Shown here piece after piece: positions 6,050-12,889 of a stretch of 64,000 nucleotides of DNA (positions are counted from its first letter, which is position 1; each line of letters opens with the position of its first letter). Source of the DNA: Candidatus Bathyarchaeia archaeon (GTDB taxonomy: Bacteria > Hydrogenedentota > Hydrogenedentia > Hydrogenedentales > SLHB01). A model generated the notes under the pieces. That model saw only the letters and a program-made list of their open reading frames with translations. It searched no databases and was not told the DNA's origin. Location of the stretch: assembly GCA_035530195.1 (NCBI GenBank), contig DATKVG010000217.1, forward strand, positions 5,241 through 69,240, in the 5' to 3' direction. The position numbers were made by a program, and so were the translations under genes.

Positions 6050-6873
6050 TATAGCAAGGCGGACAAGACTTCCTCCGCTGTTGGAAAACCTTCTTTCCCT
6101 TGGATGACGCGAACATTCTCGCCTCTTGGCGCCCAGACGGCGGGGTTGGTCGGGCCGAATATGGCGAGGGTGGGGCATCCCACGGCGGCGGCGAGGTGGG
6201 TGATACCGCTGTCGTTGCCGATGTAGAGGCGCGCGCGGGCGAGCGTCCTGCCGAGACTGGCCGGCAACATCGGGGGCAGCGACGGGCCCAGGCCCTGCAT
6301 CTGCTCTTCGGCAGGCCCCGTGCACCAGACAATCCGGCGCCCGCGGCGGGTCAGTTCATCGGCCACGGCACGAAAATTATCCAAGGGCCAATTCTTCTGC
6401 CGGCCGCCGCTGCCCGGCTGAATGACCACATCGAGATCCGGCGTATCTTTGATGTCTTTAAACGACAGCCGCGGCGGGCCGGGGTCTTCGAGATCGAGGC
6501 AGTCGAGATAGTAGGCCGATGCGTGCCGCACCCAATCGGCGGGCGGCAGCCCCGGATAGGCGTGGATCTCCTCGATGCCGCAGCCGCACATTGCATCCAG
6601 CATGGCCGCATCCGGCCGGAGCCACGCGACACATCGGTCAAATTGGGCCAAAAACCCGCGCAGCCGGGGCGACGGTATCGAGAAAAGCGTGTCGAACTCG
6701 CACGCGCCCGCGTCATGGGCGGCGTCGGCCAGCCCGCCATCGACGGCTATTTGCAGCCGCTCCCGCTTGCCCAGCAGTTCAATAGGGCCGCTGCCGCGGA
6801 GCGCCGCCAATGAAGGGCAGGACAGCAGGAAGTCGCCGATGCCGCCCAGATGAATGACCAGCGTGCGCATCAC
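6049..6873 (-). CDS. glycosyltransferase family 9 (heptosyltransferase-like)
   Basis: N-terminal MRTLVIHLGGIGDFLLSCPSL and C-terminal GNDSGITHLAAAVGCPTLAIFGPTNP are typical GT9 signatures. Confidence 0.75.
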   Translation of the reverse strand: MMRTLVIHLGGIGDFLLSCPSLAALRGSGPIELLGKRERLQIAVDGGLADAAHDAGACEFDTLFSIPSPRLRGFLAQFDRCVAWLRPDAAMLDAMCGCGIEEIHAYPGLPPADWVRHASAYYLDCLDLEDPGPPRLSFKDIKDTPDLDVVIQPGSGGRQKNWPLDNFRAVADELTRRGRRIVWCTGPAEEQMQGLGPSLPPMLPASLGRTLARARLYIGNDSGITHLAAAVGCPTLAIFGPTNPAVWAPRGENVRVIQGKEGFPTAEEVLSALL

Positions 6874-8420
6874 GGGGAACGTTGCACCACTTCATAAATC
6901 ACGACGCGCGACCGCGGATACGGGGCGAACTCCTTGATCAGGCGGAGGTCGTCGGGTGCGAGCTGCGGGTTGAGCAGCGGCGCCATACCGGGGGCCATCT
7001 GCGCCGTGTAACGCTCATCAACAACGACGTACCGCGCGCCCGCTTTTTTCGCCCTGGCCACGGCGCCCTCGAGCGAGTCGTTGAGGTCGGGGCCGGTGGA
7101 CGGCATGCCGGCGTAATAGGCGATCTGGGGTTTGCGCGAGAAGATGAGTCCCGGCGCCAGATTGTTGTGCATCCACAATCCGGCCGTCTTATATTCGAGT
7201 GGTTTCACCGGCTGGCGGTGCATGTAGTCGGCCGCGAGCGCGAGCGCCACGCCGAAAACCATCAGCAAAACCAGCGACGCGGCCGGCGCAAGGTGCAGCA
7301 GCCTGCCAAACCGCAACCTGCGCGCACGACGCGCTACAACCACAATCCCAAGCGCCGACCACATCGACAGCGCAACCAAAACCGACATCTGATACCGCGG
7401 CTCCGGCGAGAGCACAAACAGGCTCAAAAACCACTGGCAGAACGCATAGAACAGAACAAAAAACTCGAGGCGCACGTCGCGCTTAAGCGGCGCACCGTCG
7501 GGACGCCCCCCGGCCGCGCTTCCCAGCGCCGCGCTTCTTAGCGCGCTTTGTGGGGGGTGTCCCTCTTTTCCCTCCTCCTCAGGCCGATTAAAAAAACCCG
7601 CGCCGATGAACAGCAGCAGCACCGGGCCAAGCATGACGGGCAGGACTTCCGTGACCGTCTTGACAGCCGTTTTGGCCATCTCGACGAATTCAAAGTCCAT
7701 CAGGATTCTGTCGGCGCGATAGTTGATGGCCGCGTGGCCGGCAACCCGGCTCATATAGGCCGCGTACGCCCCGAGGAGCACGGCGCACACGGCCGCGTAG
7801 GGTAGAAGGCGCCACAGCTTTTTGCGCTCGCCGCGACCGAGCAACAACAGACCCGCAATTGGCGCCGCAGCCAGCAGAAATGTACCTTCCGGCCGCGTCA
7901 GGTGGAGCAGGAAAAACGCGAGCGCGGCCGCGGGAACGTACAAGCCGCCGCGGCGCAACCCCCTCGCCAGAAGCCATACCGACGTGAACCAGAGCGTGGC
8001 GGCCAGCATGTCCGGCCCGACGCGGTTCGAATAGTCGGCCAGCCACGGCCAAAGGGCGACGGCGAGCGCGCTGATGCGGGCAGGGCCGCGCCCGTGCATG
8101 TCGCGCGACACGGCGTAGACCGGCAAGACCAGACAAATGCCCGCCACAAACGACACAAAAATCCCGGCTGCTTCCCAATTAAGGATAAACAGGCCCGCCA
8201 GCGCCGTCAGCGCCGGGTACAAGACGGGGATTTTCGGGTCAAACCCGAAGAAATGGCCCATCGAAAGCTGCCGCGCCGACTCCAGATAGTGGATCGCATC
8301 GGCCGTATCAAGGACTTGCGGGGTGCCAAACACAAACGCCGCCCGCACAAGAAACGCCAGCACCATCAACATGGCGCAATCCCTGGCGGCGCCCAATCTG
8401 TTTTCCACGTTCGTTTCCAC
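6870..8420 (-). CDS. polytopic membrane glycosyltransferase (ArnT/PMT, GT39/GT83-like)
   Basis: About 10 predicted TM helices plus a C-terminal soluble domain. It overlaps the GT9 gene by 4 nt. The family assignment is from architecture only. Confidence 0.55.
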   Translation of the reverse strand: METNVENRLGAARDCAMLMVLAFLVRAAFVFGTPQVLDTADAIHYLESARQLSMGHFFGFDPKIPVLYPALTALAGLFILNWEAAGIFVSFVAGICLVLPVYAVSRDMHGRGPARISALAVALWPWLADYSNRVGPDMLAATLWFTSVWLLARGLRRGGLYVPAAALAFFLLHLTRPEGTFLLAAAPIAGLLLLGRGERKKLWRLLPYAAVCAVLLGAYAAYMSRVAGHAAINYRADRILMDFEFVEMAKTAVKTVTEVLPVMLGPVLLLFIGAGFFNRPEEEGKEGHPPQSALRSAALGSAAGGRPDGAPLKRDVRLEFFVLFYAFCQWFLSLFVLSPEPRYQMSVLVALSMWSALGIVVVARRARRLRFGRLLHLAPAASLVLLMVFGVALALAADYMHRQPVKPLEYKTAGLWMHNNLAPGLIFSRKPQIAYYAGMPSTGPDLNDSLEGAVARAKKAGARYVVVDERYTAQMAPGMAPLLNPQLAPDDLRLIKEFAPYPRSRVVIYEVVQRSP

Positions 8421-8466
8421 GGCTCAGATTCTACCCGTGCCTGCCGATTCAATCAACGGCGGCGTT

Positions 8467-8729
8467 GGCCCGAAATCATTTCGGGCCATGGAGTTTGTAC
8501 ATTTTCCACCCCCGTGAGATCCCGTTTTTCCAAAGGCCGCCTTGCGCACCAAAGGCCGCCTTGCACACCAAAAGGCCGCCGGGCGTACCAAGGCTGCCGG
8601 ACGCATCAAAGGCTGCCGGACACATTCTTGAACCCGCGAAAGCGGGTGGCTCAGAATGTGGCCCAGGGTGACCGCAGGGAACCCTGGGATAGAGGCTCCC
8701 CCCCGTGATAGAAGTCCCCGAAGGGGCCG
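8467..8729. repeat. left arm of a large imperfect inverted repeat flanking the low-GC insert; contains 5 x 19-20 bp tandem repeats (8530-8625)
   Basis: 8467-8502 (ggcccgaaatcatttcgggccatggagtttgtacat) is the reverse complement of 10570-10605. 8651-8729 is the reverse complement of 10435-10512 at roughly 85% identity by eye. The tandem units are ccaaaggccgccttgcRca and related forms. Confidence 0.8.
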
Positions 8730-8939
8730 TCAGAACCTCGAAAGGATCGCGAAATGCCGCATTCGTACCACAACCTTCTTTATCGCATGCTCCACTCAAG
8801 GAATAAAAGCCGCCCTTGGATTGACGCGAAAGTAGACGCGCGTCTCCCGTACCCCCGGCCACGGCACCGGCCAATAGCGGACCTATTCTTCACAGCCCAC
8901 GGTGAAACAAACAGCCGTCGCGTGCATTCCGGCCTTTGT

Positions 8940-10352
8940 TCATGGCCTCTGTCGGAAACTGGGGATCACCGAGTCATGAGACCGGAAACCTGTGAGAGCG
9001 TTAAGAACTTGTTTGGCAATATCGTCATCGACACAGCCATTTGCCAACATAACTACGCCGATAGCGTGCTCTTTTGAAAAGGCCAAATAAGAATGGAACC
9101 CCTTTGTAGCCCCACTATGCCAGTACACTGGATCTTTGTACCTCGCATCCTTAATCATCAGGCACAGTCCAATCCTGGAGTTCTCGATGGTTGTCTCTGC
9201 AATGGGTCCCTGCATTCTCGTGAGGTCGTTCCCTGCCGGACCCTTCGGCGCCGCGATATTTGCCTTGATGTAGCGCAGCATGTCTTTTACCGTTGAGCGT
9301 AATCCCGCAGCGCCCTCGTATACATTGGTACATGCGTTTGCATCCGCGCGAATCACGAGAGAAAGAGGCCCGAATCGTAGCGGGCCCAAATATCCCTGAG
9401 CTGTACGGTTGCCTCCTTCAGCAACCTGCACGTGCGTATCCTGCATGCCAATAGGCTCACAGATGAACTGTCTGACCATTTCTTCGTAATTCATGTTGAC
9501 TTTTCGGGCCAAAGCGAATCCTAGCAGGCCAACTCCAAAATTGGAATAGCGGAAAGATATAGCTCGAGATCTGAAGCCCGCAAGATATGCTCGCGATTCT
9601 GCATCCGTGAGATAACTGTAGCTGATGCCTGGTTCCTTCATGGACAGAAAAGCTTTCAACGTGTGGCGAAGCAGTTCTCCAAAGTTTGGCAACCCGGAAT
9701 GGTGCGTCGCGAGAGCCTTGAGCGTGATCTGATTGTCGGGTATTTTCCAGTCTGACAGGAGTGATGACAATGGGTCGTCAAGGGCGACAAGTTTCTGCTC
9801 AACGCAGTGTGCAAGCGCATGGCCCGTGAACACTTTTGTTATGGAGCCGATTTCAAAAAGGGTACCCGCATCAGGCGTTACATCGCTTTCGATAGCAACG
9901 TGGCCAGCACTGAAAACAAATGTGCGGTTCTTGTAAACAGCCCCCATGCAAATTCCTACAGGAGTAGATTGTACTTTATGACTCTTAAAGAACGCGCGGG
10001 TTATTCTGTCGAGCTTCTTAACAACGGCTGCATCCTCAGGCGAACCATCCTGATCCAGTAAGTGCCATTGATGAAGTTCTGGGTCGTAGAACGGATGGGA
10101 CTCAATGTGCAGAACAGGGTGTACCTGGATAAGCCACAGAGATGTGAACAGAACATACGTACAACCAAGTGCGAGTCGGAAGGCCAGCCGCCACCATGAT
10201 TCAGTGCGCAGGCAGTTTTGCCGAGCCAACTTGGGCCATAGTCCTCTTAGGGCACTCCAGACTATGCGCACGCTCAGAATCAAGAACAGTAGCGAAAAGA
10301 GGGAAAACAAGGCTTTAACATAGAAGTGCCCCATTGGAACTTCAGCCTCCAC
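8940..10352 (-). CDS. membrane-anchored serine hydrolase of the beta-lactamase / DD-peptidase (class C-like) family
   Basis: Two N-terminal TM helices, then SITK (SxxK), YSN (YxN) and HSG (third box) in canonical order and spacing. Confidence 0.75.
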   Translation of the reverse strand: MEAEVPMGHFYVKALFSLFSLLFLILSVRIVWSALRGLWPKLARQNCLRTESWWRLAFRLALGCTYVLFTSLWLIQVHPVLHIESHPFYDPELHQWHLLDQDGSPEDAAVVKKLDRITRAFFKSHKVQSTPVGICMGAVYKNRTFVFSAGHVAIESDVTPDAGTLFEIGSITKVFTGHALAHCVEQKLVALDDPLSSLLSDWKIPDNQITLKALATHHSGLPNFGELLRHTLKAFLSMKEPGISYSYLTDAESRAYLAGFRSRAISFRYSNFGVGLLGFALARKVNMNYEEMVRQFICEPIGMQDTHVQVAEGGNRTAQGYLGPLRFGPLSLVIRADANACTNVYEGAAGLRSTVKDMLRYIKANIAAPKGPAGNDLTRMQGPIAETTIENSRIGLCLMIKDARYKDPVYWHSGATKGFHSYLAFSKEHAIGVVMLANGCVDDDIAKQVLNALTGFRSHDSVIPSFRQRP

Positions 10353-10434
10353 GTCAGAGTTATCGATTCATCTTCTTATACATGCACCAAAAATACAAGA
10401 CAGGAAGTAGACGGCCAGGCGCGCGAAGCCTCTG

Positions 10435-10621
10435 CGGCCCCATTCGGGGACTTCTTTGATCGGGGCAGCCCCTGTCCCAGGGTTCCCTTCGGTCACCCTG
10501 GGCCACATTCTAAATCACCCGCTACGCGGGTTATAGACCAACCGTCGGGAAGGGCCGCTCCCAACGATAATGTATAAATTCCAGGGCCCGAAATCATTTC
10601 GGGCCTACATTTCGGGCCTAC
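10435..10621. repeat. right arm of the inverted repeat flanking the low-GC insert
   Basis: See the left-arm entry. It ends with the ggcccgaaatcatttcgggcc palindrome (10585-10605) followed by a duplicated atttcgggcctac. Confidence 0.8.
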
Positions 10622-10626
10622 ATGCG

Positions 10627-10655
10627 TTGACAACCCCCATACCCTGTGTTAAGGT
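10627..10655 (+). promoter_or_regulatory. possible sigma70-type promoter of the flagellar export operon
   Basis: TTGACA (10627-10632), a 17 nt spacer, then TAAGGT (10650-10655, a weak -10), about 50 nt upstream of the fliQ ATG. Confidence 0.25.
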
Positions 10656-10707
10656 GCTTTTATTAGTGGACTTGCCCGGTTTCTGGGGACGCGGCTGGGG
10701 TGGAAAA

Positions 10708-10977
10708 ATGACCGTTGATGATGTTGTTGCTCTGGGGTGGAACGCCCTGCTCGTTACCCTCCTGATGGCGGCGCCGATGTTGCTTTCCGGGCTGATGGTG
10801 GGGCTCGCGGTCAGCATTTTGCAGTCGGTGACGCAGGTCCAGGAGATGACGCTGGCGTTCGTGCCGAAAATCGTGGCCGTAATGCTGGCGTTCATTCTTT
10901 TCCTGCCGTGGATCATGGCCACCCTGCTCAACTTCGTCCAGCCGTTGTTCGGCAATTTCGACATGCTGGTCAGATAA
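10708..10977 (+). CDS. fliQ: flagellar biosynthetic protein FliQ
   Basis: An 89 aa two-TM protein (MTVDDVVALGWNALLVTLLMAAPMLL..LQSVTQVQEMTLAFVPKI). The ORF-track start at 10570 lies inside the repeat arm and is unlikely. Confidence 0.85.
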   Translation: MTVDDVVALGWNALLVTLLMAAPMLLSGLMVGLAVSILQSVTQVQEMTLAFVPKIVAVMLAFILFLPWIMATLLNFVQPLFGNFDMLVR

Positions 10978-10991
10978 TCCGGACTTATGCT

Positions 10992-11771
10992 GTGGAACCA
11001 TTTACCGTATTCGAGGTGGAAGTTTTTAAAGTCTTCCTGCTCGTAATGGTCCGGATCAGCGGGTTTGTGGTTTCGGCGCCCGTCTTCGGTTCCAGAAACT
11101 TCCCCATCGTCGCCAAAATATGTTTTACGGCGCTGGTCGCGGCCATCCTTACACCGAGCATCCAGAGCCTGGGGCAAACCCTTCCAAGCGAGCCGGTGGC
11201 GCTGGCGGTGCTGGGCGTGGGCGAGCTCATGATTGGCCTGATGCTGGGATTTGTGATGACGCTCGTATTCGCCGCAATCCAGGTCGGCGGCCAAATCATG
11301 GACATGCAGTCCGGGTTCAGCATGATCAACGTGTTCAACCCCGCCATGGAAACCCAGGTGCCCGTGTTCGGCTTTTTCCTGTTCATTCTGGCGGTCCTGT
11401 TCCTGCTGGTTACCAACGGGCATCACGTCATGATCCGCGCGCTGGTTTCGACCTTTGATCAGATCCCGCTGGGCGGGTTTGTATTGCGGCCCGAACTGTT
11501 CTGGGAAATCACCCGGTGGGGCCGGGTGATGTTTTACGACGGGCTGCTGATAGCGGCGCCCGTGGCAGCGGCCCTGTTTGTGGCGTATCTGGCGATGGGC
11601 CTGATAGGCCGGGTGGTCCCGCAGATCCAGTTGTTCGTGGTTGGATTCCCGCTGACGATCGCGGTGGGCTTGTTCGTGATGGCGATCTCGGTCCACATGT
11701 ACCTGATGACGCTCGAAGGCATGTTCCATGATATGTTCGAAGGCGTCGCATCCATGATTAGAGCCATTTAG
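10992..11771 (+). CDS. fliR: flagellar biosynthetic protein FliR
   Basis: GTG 10992 gives 259 aa and does not overlap the fliQ body. RISGFVVSAPVFG and the polytopic profile are typical of FliR. Confidence 0.8.
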   Translation: MEPFTVFEVEVFKVFLLVMVRISGFVVSAPVFGSRNFPIVAKICFTALVAAILTPSIQSLGQTLPSEPVALAVLGVGELMIGLMLGFVMTLVFAAIQVGGQIMDMQSGFSMINVFNPAMETQVPVFGFFLFILAVLFLLVTNGHHVMIRALVSTFDQIPLGGFVLRPELFWEITRWGRVMFYDGLLIAAPVAAALFVAYLAMGLIGRVVPQIQLFVVGFPLTIAVGLFVMAISVHMYLMTLEGMFHDMFEGVASMIRAI

Positions 11772-11773
11772 AC

Positions 11774-12889
11774 ATGCCTGAGCAACCCGGCGGAGATAAA
11801 ACTTTACCGGCATCGCCGCTCAAGCGGCAGCGCGCGCGCGAGGACGGGAAGGTTGCAAAAAGCCAGGACCTCGTGTCGGCGGGGGCGCTCCTGGCGGCGT
11901 TGCTCGCGCTGCGGCTGCTGGGCCCGGCGTCGTTTGACCGCCTGATCGGGGTGATGTACTACTACCTCGGGTCGTTTCCCGAAAAATTCCAGGACCTGGA
12001 AGCCCCCCAGCGGTTCGCAATAGAACTGCTTTGGGTAGCCGCGCCGATCGTGCTGCCGTTCATGCTCGTGATGATGCTGGCCGGCGTCCTGCTCAACGTC
12101 ATGCAAGTCGGCATCCTGTTTACGGCCAAACCGCTGACCCCCAAGCTGGACAAACTGAACCCGATCAATGGGCTTGCGAACCTGTTTACGCTCCGCTCGT
12201 TCGTCGAGTTGATCAAATCCATCTTGAAAGTCACGCTCGCTGTGTGGATCGTGTGGCTGACCGTGAAAACCCGGCGGGAACAGTTTGTAAACCTTATGGC
12301 CGCAACCCCGGAAGCCTTACCGACTGCTGTTGGCGGGATGATCGTCACGATTTGGTGGCGGGTGGCGGCGGCGATGCTCGTGCTGGGCCTGCTGGACTAC
12401 GGATTCCAACGCTGGCAGTACGAGCGCGACCTGAGGATGACCACGCAGGAAGCCCGCGAAGAACTCCGCGAATTCGAAGGCGACCCCCGGATCCGCCAGC
12501 GGGTCCGCCAGATCCAGCGGCAGATGGCGATGCAGCGCATGATGGGCGAAGTGCCGCGGGCCGACGTCGTCATCACCAACCCCACGCAATTCGCCGTCGC
12601 GCTCCGGTATGACGCCGCCACCATGCGGGCGCCGGTGGTCGTCGCCAAAGGCGCCCGAATCCTCGCCGAACGCATCCGCACGATTGCCGTGGAAAACGAC
12701 GTGCCGATTGTCCGGAAACCGGAGCTGGCGCGCACCCTCTACCGGACGATTGACGTCAACCAGCCCGTGCCCGAGGACCTGTTCCGGGCGGTGGCGGAAG
12801 TGCTGGCGTACGTGTACCAGATCGACAGGCGCGAGCAGAAAATACGGGAGCGCCGCGAGAATTGGAACTCGTCCCCCGCGCGGGCATAA
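11774..12889 (+). CDS. flhB: flagellar export switch protein FlhB
   Basis: N-terminal KTLPASPLKRQRAREDGKVAKSQDL, 4 TM helices, and a C-terminal autocleavage region ITNPTQFAVALRY. The motif is NPTQ rather than the canonical NPTH. Confidence 0.9.
   Translation: MPEQPGGDKTLPASPLKRQRAREDGKVAKSQDLVSAGALLAALLALRLLGPASFDRLIGVMYYYLGSFPEKFQDLEAPQRFAIELLWVAAPIVLPFMLVMMLAGVLLNVMQVGILFTAKPLTPKLDKLNPINGLANLFTLRSFVELIKSILKVTLAVWIVWLTVKTRREQFVNLMAATPEALPTAVGGMIVTIWWRVAAAMLVLGLLDYGFQRWQYERDLRMTTQEAREELREFEGDPRIRQRVRQIQRQMAMQRMMGEVPRADVVITNPTQFAVALRYDAATMRAPVVVAKGARILAERIRTIAVENDVPIVRKPELARTLYRTIDVNQPVPEDLFRAVAEVLAYVYQIDRREQKIRERRENWNSSPARA

Follow-up and report, generated by a model that had tools for sequence, protein, structure and literature searches.

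REP (repetitive extragenic palindromic) sequences are places into which mobile DNA inserts, as REP-targeting insertion sequences do. They can also accompany a Y1 transposase gene of their own: in the units called REPtrons and TIRtrons, a RAYT (REP-associated tyrosine transposase) or TIRYT gene is flanked by inverted REPs or long TIRs (terminal inverted repeats) (PMC2817692; PMC3733652; PMC8266576). REP-associated Y1 transposases are seen as domesticated enzymes whose genes occur once and do not move, the published position being that there is 'no evidence of tnpAREP mobility' (PMC8266576), and REPs have been described as hot spots for repeats (PMC3733652). Here we describe a locus that bears on this view, found in a 64,000-nt stretch of DNA (the window; contig C217, positions 5241-69240) from a metagenome-assembled genome (MAG) of 4.77 Mb (232 contigs, 61.0% GC), which named homologues and a shared repeat assign to Candidatus Hydrogenedentota. 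In the window, the intergenic region between a PMT_2/GT39-type glycosyltransferase gene (PMT_2) and the flagellar export gene fliQ extends over about 2.3 kb and contains a 2118-bp insert, measured from hairpin to hairpin, in which inverted repeats enclose a gene for a membrane-anchored serine hydrolase (the cassette; Table 1). Comparison with related sequences makes it probable, at roughly three chances in four, that this cassette is a decayed REPtron/TIRtron-type shell carrying a horizontally acquired hydrolase gene.

The origin of the shell is indicated by a second locus of the same genome, on contigs C209 and C191, where three direct copies of an approximately 105-nt repeat (R105) are followed by a Y1 gene and one inverted R105 copy. 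The open reading frame (ORF) starts 13 nt after the third R105 copy on C209 and ends 17 nt before the inverted copy on C191, and joining both contigs through a 141-nt overlap gives a 150-aa Y1 protein that matches PF01797 (Y1_Tnp, E = 3.5e-23), scores 64.6 bits with the NCBIfam IS200/IS605 model NF033573 (cut-off 55) and shows, by eye, HLH and RYISSQ motifs. The break between C209 and C191 lies inside the Y1 gene, with an overlap of exactly the 141-nt k-mer size of the assembler; it hints at a branch of the assembly graph due to a strain variant or to a further copy. Homologous Y1 genes in two genomes of the same family (G006 and G016) are tightly flanked by inverted repeats of 52-64 nt with GTAG and a hairpin.

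The window matches this intact locus on both sides of the hydrolase gene. Positions 8628-8845 align with it at 83.5% DNA identity (pairwise E = 6e-62) and span the last R105 copy, the 5' untranslated region and the first 92 nt of the gene, and positions 10403-10530 align with C191 at 82.8% (E = 1e-33) and take in the final 7 nt of the gene together with the spacer and the inverted R105 copy. The spacing from arm to gene start and from gene stop to arm is the same as in the intact locus. Since the match runs up to 8845 and is taken up again at 10403, the hydrolase segment appears to have replaced the body of the transposase gene, so that 1557 bp (8846-10402) stand in for about 353 bp (about codons 32-148); what is left has neither the HUH motif nor the catalytic Tyr. 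A continuation of the remnant beyond 8845 was considered and rejected, DNA and protein similarity being no higher there than in shuffled controls. An earlier note on this DNA, based on the sequence alone, had stated that no transposase was present, which the surviving 31 codons and last gene bases contradict. Its alternative image, a gene caught between palindromic repeats, came near the mark, since the arms are copies of a dispersed palindromic repeat; they are also the flanks of a Y1 transposase locus.

The same remnants bear on a history in which the hydrolase gene landed alone and REP-type repeats gathered around it later, the transposase stubs being incidental parts of these repeats. Such independent accretion would fit an intergenic region that gathers different repeats in each lineage (see below), as well as the general proliferation of REPs in intergenic DNA (PMC3733652). 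However, stubs are absent from the other R105 copies (C127, C51 and C209a/b), hence they are remains of the gene and not parts of the repeat, and the two stubs (5' and 3') as well as the two arms keep the order, orientation and spacing of the intact locus. We disfavour accretion and regard it as very improbable.

R105 is present in nine copies at five or more loci of the genome: C209 has three direct copies, spaced 168 nt, at its end, and C127 likewise ends with two; C191 starts with an inverted copy, C51 has a single one, and the window has the two arms, the left of which is 83-87% identical to the copies on C209 (all three), C127 (both), C191 and C51. The consensus folds into three hairpins around the core GTGG-CCCAGGGT-GACCGAAGGGA-ACCCTGGG, invariant in all nine copies; as the base pairs do not vary, there is no covariation to indicate selection for structure at the RNA or DNA level. 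An exact-match search for the core pattern found none in 40 relatives, same-genus G001 included, and none among the GTDB representatives. An Rfam scan of 8300-10800 placed sul1 on the first R105 hairpin at 21 bits versus 36 (E = 0.62), a sub-threshold candidate that we rejected.

Within the window, the inner inverted repeats (8641-8702/10462-10523, 62 nt, 89%; 8700-8734/10431-10465, 35 nt, 77%) are joined by BLAST into about 105 nt of 84.8% identity, which is R105, and an outer inverted repeat (8464-8506/10566-10608) covers 43 nt at 86%, in good agreement with the inverted match of about 85% previously read by eye. The 19-bp unit already noticed as expanded in the left arm was recovered by Tandem Repeats Finder (TRF) with 4.7 copies; this array is identical across five assemblies, and nothing else in the genome matches it convincingly, the best hit outside it having 21 nt and E = 0.03. 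A comparable layout of arm plus array was seen with a third REP family, with core CCTGGGGCNNNGCCCCAGG, which forms an inverted doublet at window positions 769-787/877-895, upstream of a beta-helix gene. Its core also lies in inverted arms of about 100 nt around two Y1 genes (C158:14300-15900), one of them with an internal TGA, and these loci adjoin a tandem array of about 13 units of 23-24 nt, matching the arrangement of R105 arm and 19-nt array in the cassette.

That the cassette is an insertion, as had been proposed, is supported by a metagenomic contig of a sister species (L061; PMT_2 88% identical by BLASTP, FlhB 94% by codon alignment). It has the same order of ten genes, flhG-flhF-flhA-flhB-fliR-fliQ and then PMT_2-GT9-amidohydrolase-beta-helix, and a fliQ-PMT_2 gap of only 191 nt with a single GTAG-type REP hairpin. 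The spacer runs from a PMT_2 promoter-like TTGATT-17-TAAAAT to GTAGGTCCGAAATAATTTCGGACC and, after 37 nt, to a fliQ promoter-like TTGACA-17-TATGGT, and its hairpin stands at the same distance from PMT_2 as the left hairpin of the window (8464-8487). Since this syntenic site is empty, the window segment is best read as inserted DNA. Chimerism from assembly is excluded, because the locus is found in five independent public assemblies with a 100% identical left arm in the same context. All public contigs with the hydrolase gene show this one locus, a second insertion site being found in none of the assemblies.

A second sister, represented by contigs L060 and L032 (60-nt overlap), has about 565 nt at the site, with the same hairpin and other palindromic additions, and has neither a hydrolase gene nor an R105 core there. 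What it has added at this REP hairpin (L060:1-196 and L032:1-430) differs from the insert in the window and includes the inverted pair gatagccccaaatccgcacgtaagg/cttacgtgcggatttgggatagcc. The PMT_2-fliQ gap thus apparently collects repeats independently in each lineage. Contig L033 (FliR 87% identical) was tried as a further empty site and discarded, an HAD-family gene upstream of its fliQ breaking synteny.

These comparisons could also be read in the opposite direction, with the cassette, or the REPtron alone, being ancestral and cleanly deleted in the sisters through the two identical hairpins. Identical 21-nt repeats would permit a precise deletion leaving one hairpin, which is the state of L061, and by PMT_2 distance the three lineages form nearly a star. 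On the other hand, this polarity would call for a minimum of two separate losses, one in L061 and one in L060/L032, the second sister carries different extra sequence at the site, and an ancestral cassette is difficult to match with an R105 core that has no exact counterpart in G001, in the other 39 relatives or in GTDB representatives. Synonymous divergence (dS) of flhB makes the window and L032 sisters and leaves L061 outside, so that one gain is more parsimonious than two losses. The reversed polarity is, in our estimate, distinctly improbable.

Both ends of the insert carry the same 21-nt hairpin as a perfect repeat (8467-8487 and 10585-10605). It is a member of a REP family headed by GTAG, of which about 20 related copies occur genome-wide, and an exact-pattern scan of the GTDB representatives for it matched only two MAGs. 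Read as a TIR-type element, the insert would have the 43-nt outer inverted repeat as its ends and the 21-nt repeat as its flanks; this flanking repeat is the resident REP hairpin, single in the empty site, and is not a typical target-site duplication. A tail-plus-hairpin unit like the outer repeat also lies at C100:6865-6908. The core with its tails has no second copy in the genome, so the multi-copy state of a MITE-like (miniature inverted-repeat transposable) element was not found. The 13-nt duplication of half a hairpin at the right junction, absent from L061 and L032, may be the footprint of slippage, or of hairpin cleavage and rejoining. The same REP hairpin was encountered on L070 (CAZPMT010000012.1, 'uncultured Nitrospiraceae bacterium'), which at 80,854 bp has the same length as contig C12 of G003, which belongs to the family of the present genome; the organism label of L070 is probably wrong.

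The interior of the cassette differs in composition from its surroundings. Its core (8846-10402) has 50.9% GC, with 47.7% in the lowest 300-nt window, compared with 61.1 ± 2.8% in 1557-nt windows of the genome (z = -3.7; only 0.5% of windows equally low), and GC at third codon positions is 53.5% in the hydrolase gene versus 74-86% in neighbouring genes. The low GC content pointed out before is therefore a real drop, but a milder one than the 43-47% counted by hand, and third-position GC deviates as well. By these measures the hydrolase gene is compositionally foreign and was apparently acquired horizontally.

The hydrolase ORF is intact and corresponds to the earlier description of a two-transmembrane SxxK/YxN/HxG enzyme, with a PF00144 match and the motifs S164-I-T-K, Y263-S-N and H406-S-G. 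Two hydrophobic segments (about residues 8-28 and 50-69) occupy the N-terminus, and an Arg/Lys-rich loop between the two helices would place the catalytic domain outside by the positive-inside rule, presumably facing the periplasm, where its substrate might be peptidoglycan-like, a beta-lactam or an ester. The AlphaFold model (pLDDT 85) retrieved, in Foldseek, class C beta-lactamases and the family VIII esterase IS11 with a TM, normalised to the target, of about 0.8 and an identity near 20%. All curated NCBIfam class C and AmpH models remained far below their cut-offs (109.5 versus 415 bits for class C). The protein should not be called a beta-lactamase, its third motif being HSG and not KTG, and is assigned to the PF00144 superfamily only. 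PADLOC gave no defence-system match for the hydrolase or for the chimeric ORF described below.

The relatives of the hydrolase lie elsewhere. No close homologue was found in 40 relatives (best 37% identity), genomes of the same genus and family among them, and a 32% paralogue on contig C118 is less deviant in composition (57.6% GC). Among closer relatives in a large protein database, P0003 is 79% identical by BLASTP (78% in the codon alignment) and is encoded on L030, where the hydrolase homologue (900-2850) forms a 45-52% GC island between flanks of 60-66% GC and is convergent with a contractile-injection-system tube gene, 14 nt from the end of the latter. DNA homology between the window and L030 is limited to the coding sequence and about 60 nt upstream (window about 8979-10395). 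More distant homologues are found directly after an IS30-type transposase C-terminus, assigned by eye (P0004, 61%), and on a contig of roughly 50-55% GC, 2.4 kb from an ISL3 transposase gene (P0005, 47%). Genes flanking the L030 hydrolase are absent from G000 and G001 and have 58-66% identical homologues in G020, of the same family, hence the hydrolase module seems to have landed at different sites in related hosts; the L030 host probably belongs to this family too. In G020 itself nothing close to the hydrolase was found, the best match (E = 5.3e-4) lying on a contig other than that of these genes. Between window and L030 the hydrolase has dS = 0.25 and dN/dS = 0.49, versus dN/dS of 0.08-0.11 for flanking core genes, indicating purifying but relaxed selection.

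These data can be assembled into the following history. On the branch to this species, an R105-type Y1 locus would have settled at a GTAG-type REP hairpin already resident there, in a gap that is itself free of promoters and separates those of the glycosyltransferase gene and fliQ, which diverge; the hairpin now stands at both ends of the insert. Afterwards, illegitimate recombination would have swapped transposase codons of about 32-148 for a 1.56-kb, 51% GC segment on the opposite strand, which brought the hydrolase gene together with its own upstream region. Insertion would thus have preceded loss of the transposase, and the unit is presumably immobile by itself today. The double hairpin might stem from Y1 strand transfer at REP cleavage sites, from a pre-existing REP doublet that served as target, or from later gene conversion.

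Several observations weigh against this history. A whole 21-nt palindrome at both ends of the insert is not explained by it. Polarity comes from three lineages only, with the nearly star-like PMT_2 distances mentioned above, and the contigs of same-genus G001 end at the window equivalents of 8425 and about 11764, nothing from 8424-11800 having been found. The R105 core begins with GTGG and the canonical tetranucleotide is GTAG. The intact locus that serves as reference consists of two contigs whose join, via the 141-nt overlap, is only likely. Its Y1 protein reaches only 24.7 bits with the proteobacterial RAYT model of NCBIfam (NF047646, cut-off 80), so that 'RAYT' is used here as an architectural label and not as a family assignment. 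Finally, positions 8846-8939, which separate the hydrolase stop from the remnant of the transposase gene, have no match to the rest of that gene, to the genome or to L030.

A more active role of the system is conceivable, in which R105 arms and hydrolase moved as one piece, a non-autonomous cargo element mobilised in trans by the intact Y1 protein of C209/C191. The cognate gene is indeed present in the same genome, with arms 83-87% identical; the unit is an insertion relative to the sister species; the hydrolase fills the place of the transposase nearly from start to stop with both locus ends kept; and R105, species-specific and low in copy number, would fit a recent, possibly active system. 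Against it, the unit is single-copy, its core and tails being unique in the genome and no second insertion site appearing in any assembly, relatives of the hydrolase on L030 and L056 have no R105, and the arms in the window are no more alike to one another than to other R105 copies. REPtrons in general show no evidence of mobility (PMC8266576), and positive support is limited to the existence of the intact paralogue. We consider a moving cargo element unlikely and retain, for the reasons given above, the decayed shell that received a foreign gene.

The flanks of the cassette show little sign of disturbance. Promoter-like sites of both PMT_2 and fliQ lie outside the insert, which therefore occupies a neutral gap, and that of fliQ is the first sequence to the right of the insert that is conserved with all relatives. 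It had been suggested that the cassette sits where fliP would normally precede fliQ. This proved incorrect: the only PF00813 (fliP) match of the genome is on contig C129, where fliN, fliO and fliP are adjacent and no fliQ follows (C129:2713-6294, L009), and in each of the four relatives examined (G003, G015, L033 and L061) the cluster opens with fliQ, with upstream neighbours that are mutually unrelated and, in L061, with the glycosyltransferase gene directly adjoining it. The insert thus displaced nothing; export-gate genes appear to be split into two clusters in this lineage, and the cassette is functionally unlinked to flagellar export, the flagellar operon being intact. Public gene callers annotate a 107-aa 'hypothetical protein' at 8754-9077. 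This is a chimera, in which the 31 codons left of the transposase run on into antisense sequence from the 3' end of the hydrolase gene.

Table 1 Features of the cassette and its immediate neighbourhood in the window.
Feature	Position	Strand	Remarks
PMT_2/GT39-type glycosyltransferase gene	6870-8372 or 8420	minus	Left neighbour
Promoter-like site of the PMT_2 gene	8428-8456	minus	TTGATT-17-TAGAAT; consensus match only; outside the insert
Left short REP copy	8464-8487	none	GTTG + 21-nt hairpin GGCCCGAAATCATTTCGGGCC; position of the resident hairpin of the empty site
Left tail of the outer inverted repeat	8488-8506	plus	ATGGAGTTTGTACATTTTC; insert begins here
Tandem array	8530-8625	plus	TRF at 8530-8619: period 19 nt, 4.7 copies, 82% matches
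Left R105 arm	8628-8735	plus	Core GTGG + CCCAGGGT..ACCCTGGG; three-hairpin REP-like repeat
Y1 (IS200-family, RAYT-like) gene remnant, codons 1-31	8754-8845	plus	MPHSYHNLLYRMLHSRNKSRPWIDAKVDARL; tblastn 64.5% over 31 aa
Spacer, transposase remnant to hydrolase stop	8846-8939	none	
Membrane-anchored PF00144 serine hydrolase, 464 aa	8940-10334	minus	Pfam E = 2.4e-42; ORF 8940-10352, ATG at 10334
Hydrolase upstream region	10335-10398	minus	GGAGG + conserved TGCATGTATAAGAAGATGAATCGAT block; shared with the unrelated locus L030, travels with the gene
3'-end transposase remnant and spacer before the right arm	10403-10430	plus	BLAST match from 10403; by eye extends to GGAAGTAG at 10396-10403
Right R105 arm	10431-10531	minus	Orientation opposite to that of the left arm
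Right tail of the outer inverted repeat	10566-10584	minus	
Right REP hairpin copy + TAC (GTAG on the minus strand)	10585-10608	none	100% identical to 8467-8487
13-nt tandem duplication of the hairpin 3' half	10595-10623	plus	CATTTCGGGCCTA x2.2 (TRF); at the right junction
fliQ operon promoter-like site	10627-10655	plus	TTGACA-17-TAAGGT; read from the sequences, not listed by the consensus scan
fliQ	10708-10977		Right neighbour; then fliR, flhB and flhA downstream

The left neighbour carries a palindromic repeat of its own. At window positions 7495-7580, inside the PMT_2 ORF (minus strand), approximately 75 nt (GGGACGCCCCCCGG...GGGGGGTGTCCC) are inserted in frame and add about 20 residues; the L061 orthologue lacks this repeat and L060 has a shorter form. 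BLAST aligns it 72 times within the genome, with several alignments to a locus, and over 40 times in G001, of the same genus. It is, to judge from these matches, an intragenic REP-like insertion.

The locus presents a REPtron/TIRtron-type unit in one species that is absent at the syntenic site of its sister and is bracketed by a duplicated REP hairpin, and it indicates that the space between the arms can house a foreign gene instead of the transposase. If the intact paralogue acts on the arms in the window, REP systems could move genes and not only 100-nt repeats; should the cassette truly be a cargo element, it would be the first natural REPtron-type element both mobile and cargo-carrying.

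Among described systems, REPtrons and TIRtrons share with this one an IS200-related HUH/Y1 gene tightly enclosed by inverted structured repeats that also occur elsewhere in the genome, a GT(A/G)G tetranucleotide beside a hairpin (GTGG here, by sequence only), and a low copy number concentrated near the gene; given arms of about 100 nt with several hairpins, the 'long TIR' variant of TIRtrons (PMC3733652) fits best. In contrast to them, the transposase in the window is reduced to 31 codons that have neither HUH motif nor catalytic Tyr, with a foreign gene in its place; the unit is present in one and absent from another of two syntenic sister species, whereas the reviews report no tnpA(REP) mobility; and the intact protein scores as IS200, not as proteobacterial RAYT, in a Hydrogenedentota host. 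With IS200/IS605 elements and their non-autonomous derivatives (palindrome-associated transposable elements, PATEs), the locus has in common PF01797, hairpin-rich ends and a palindrome-bordered gene. Their ends, however, consist of subterminal hairpins and lack terminal inverted repeats, and their copies are near-identical, whereas here inverted arms of about 105 nt are found at two loci only 83% alike, the core exists in one copy and TnpB is absent.

Insertion at a resident REP hairpin between divergent promoters, with a different addition in each sister lineage, resembles REP-targeting insertion, but the full 21-nt hairpin stands at both junctions instead of being split with a 2-4 bp duplication, and the inserted DNA is a REPtron shell and not a DDE-type insertion sequence. 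As for the enzyme, class C beta-lactamases, AmpH/DD-peptidases and family VIII esterases of PF00144 have the same SxxK and YxN motifs and a similar fold (TM about 0.8), and differ from it by KTG in place of HSG, by its two-helix N-terminal membrane anchor and by an identity of only about 20% to solved structures. No precedent for a passenger gene in an IS200/IS605 element or a REPtron emerged from the literature searched, which does not prove that none exists. REPtrons, TIRtrons and their decay are thus already known; what appear to be undescribed are a clear comparison of filled and empty sites between syntenic sister species, for which the evidence is comparative only, and a copy in which, within intact arms, the transposase has been replaced by an unrelated gene.

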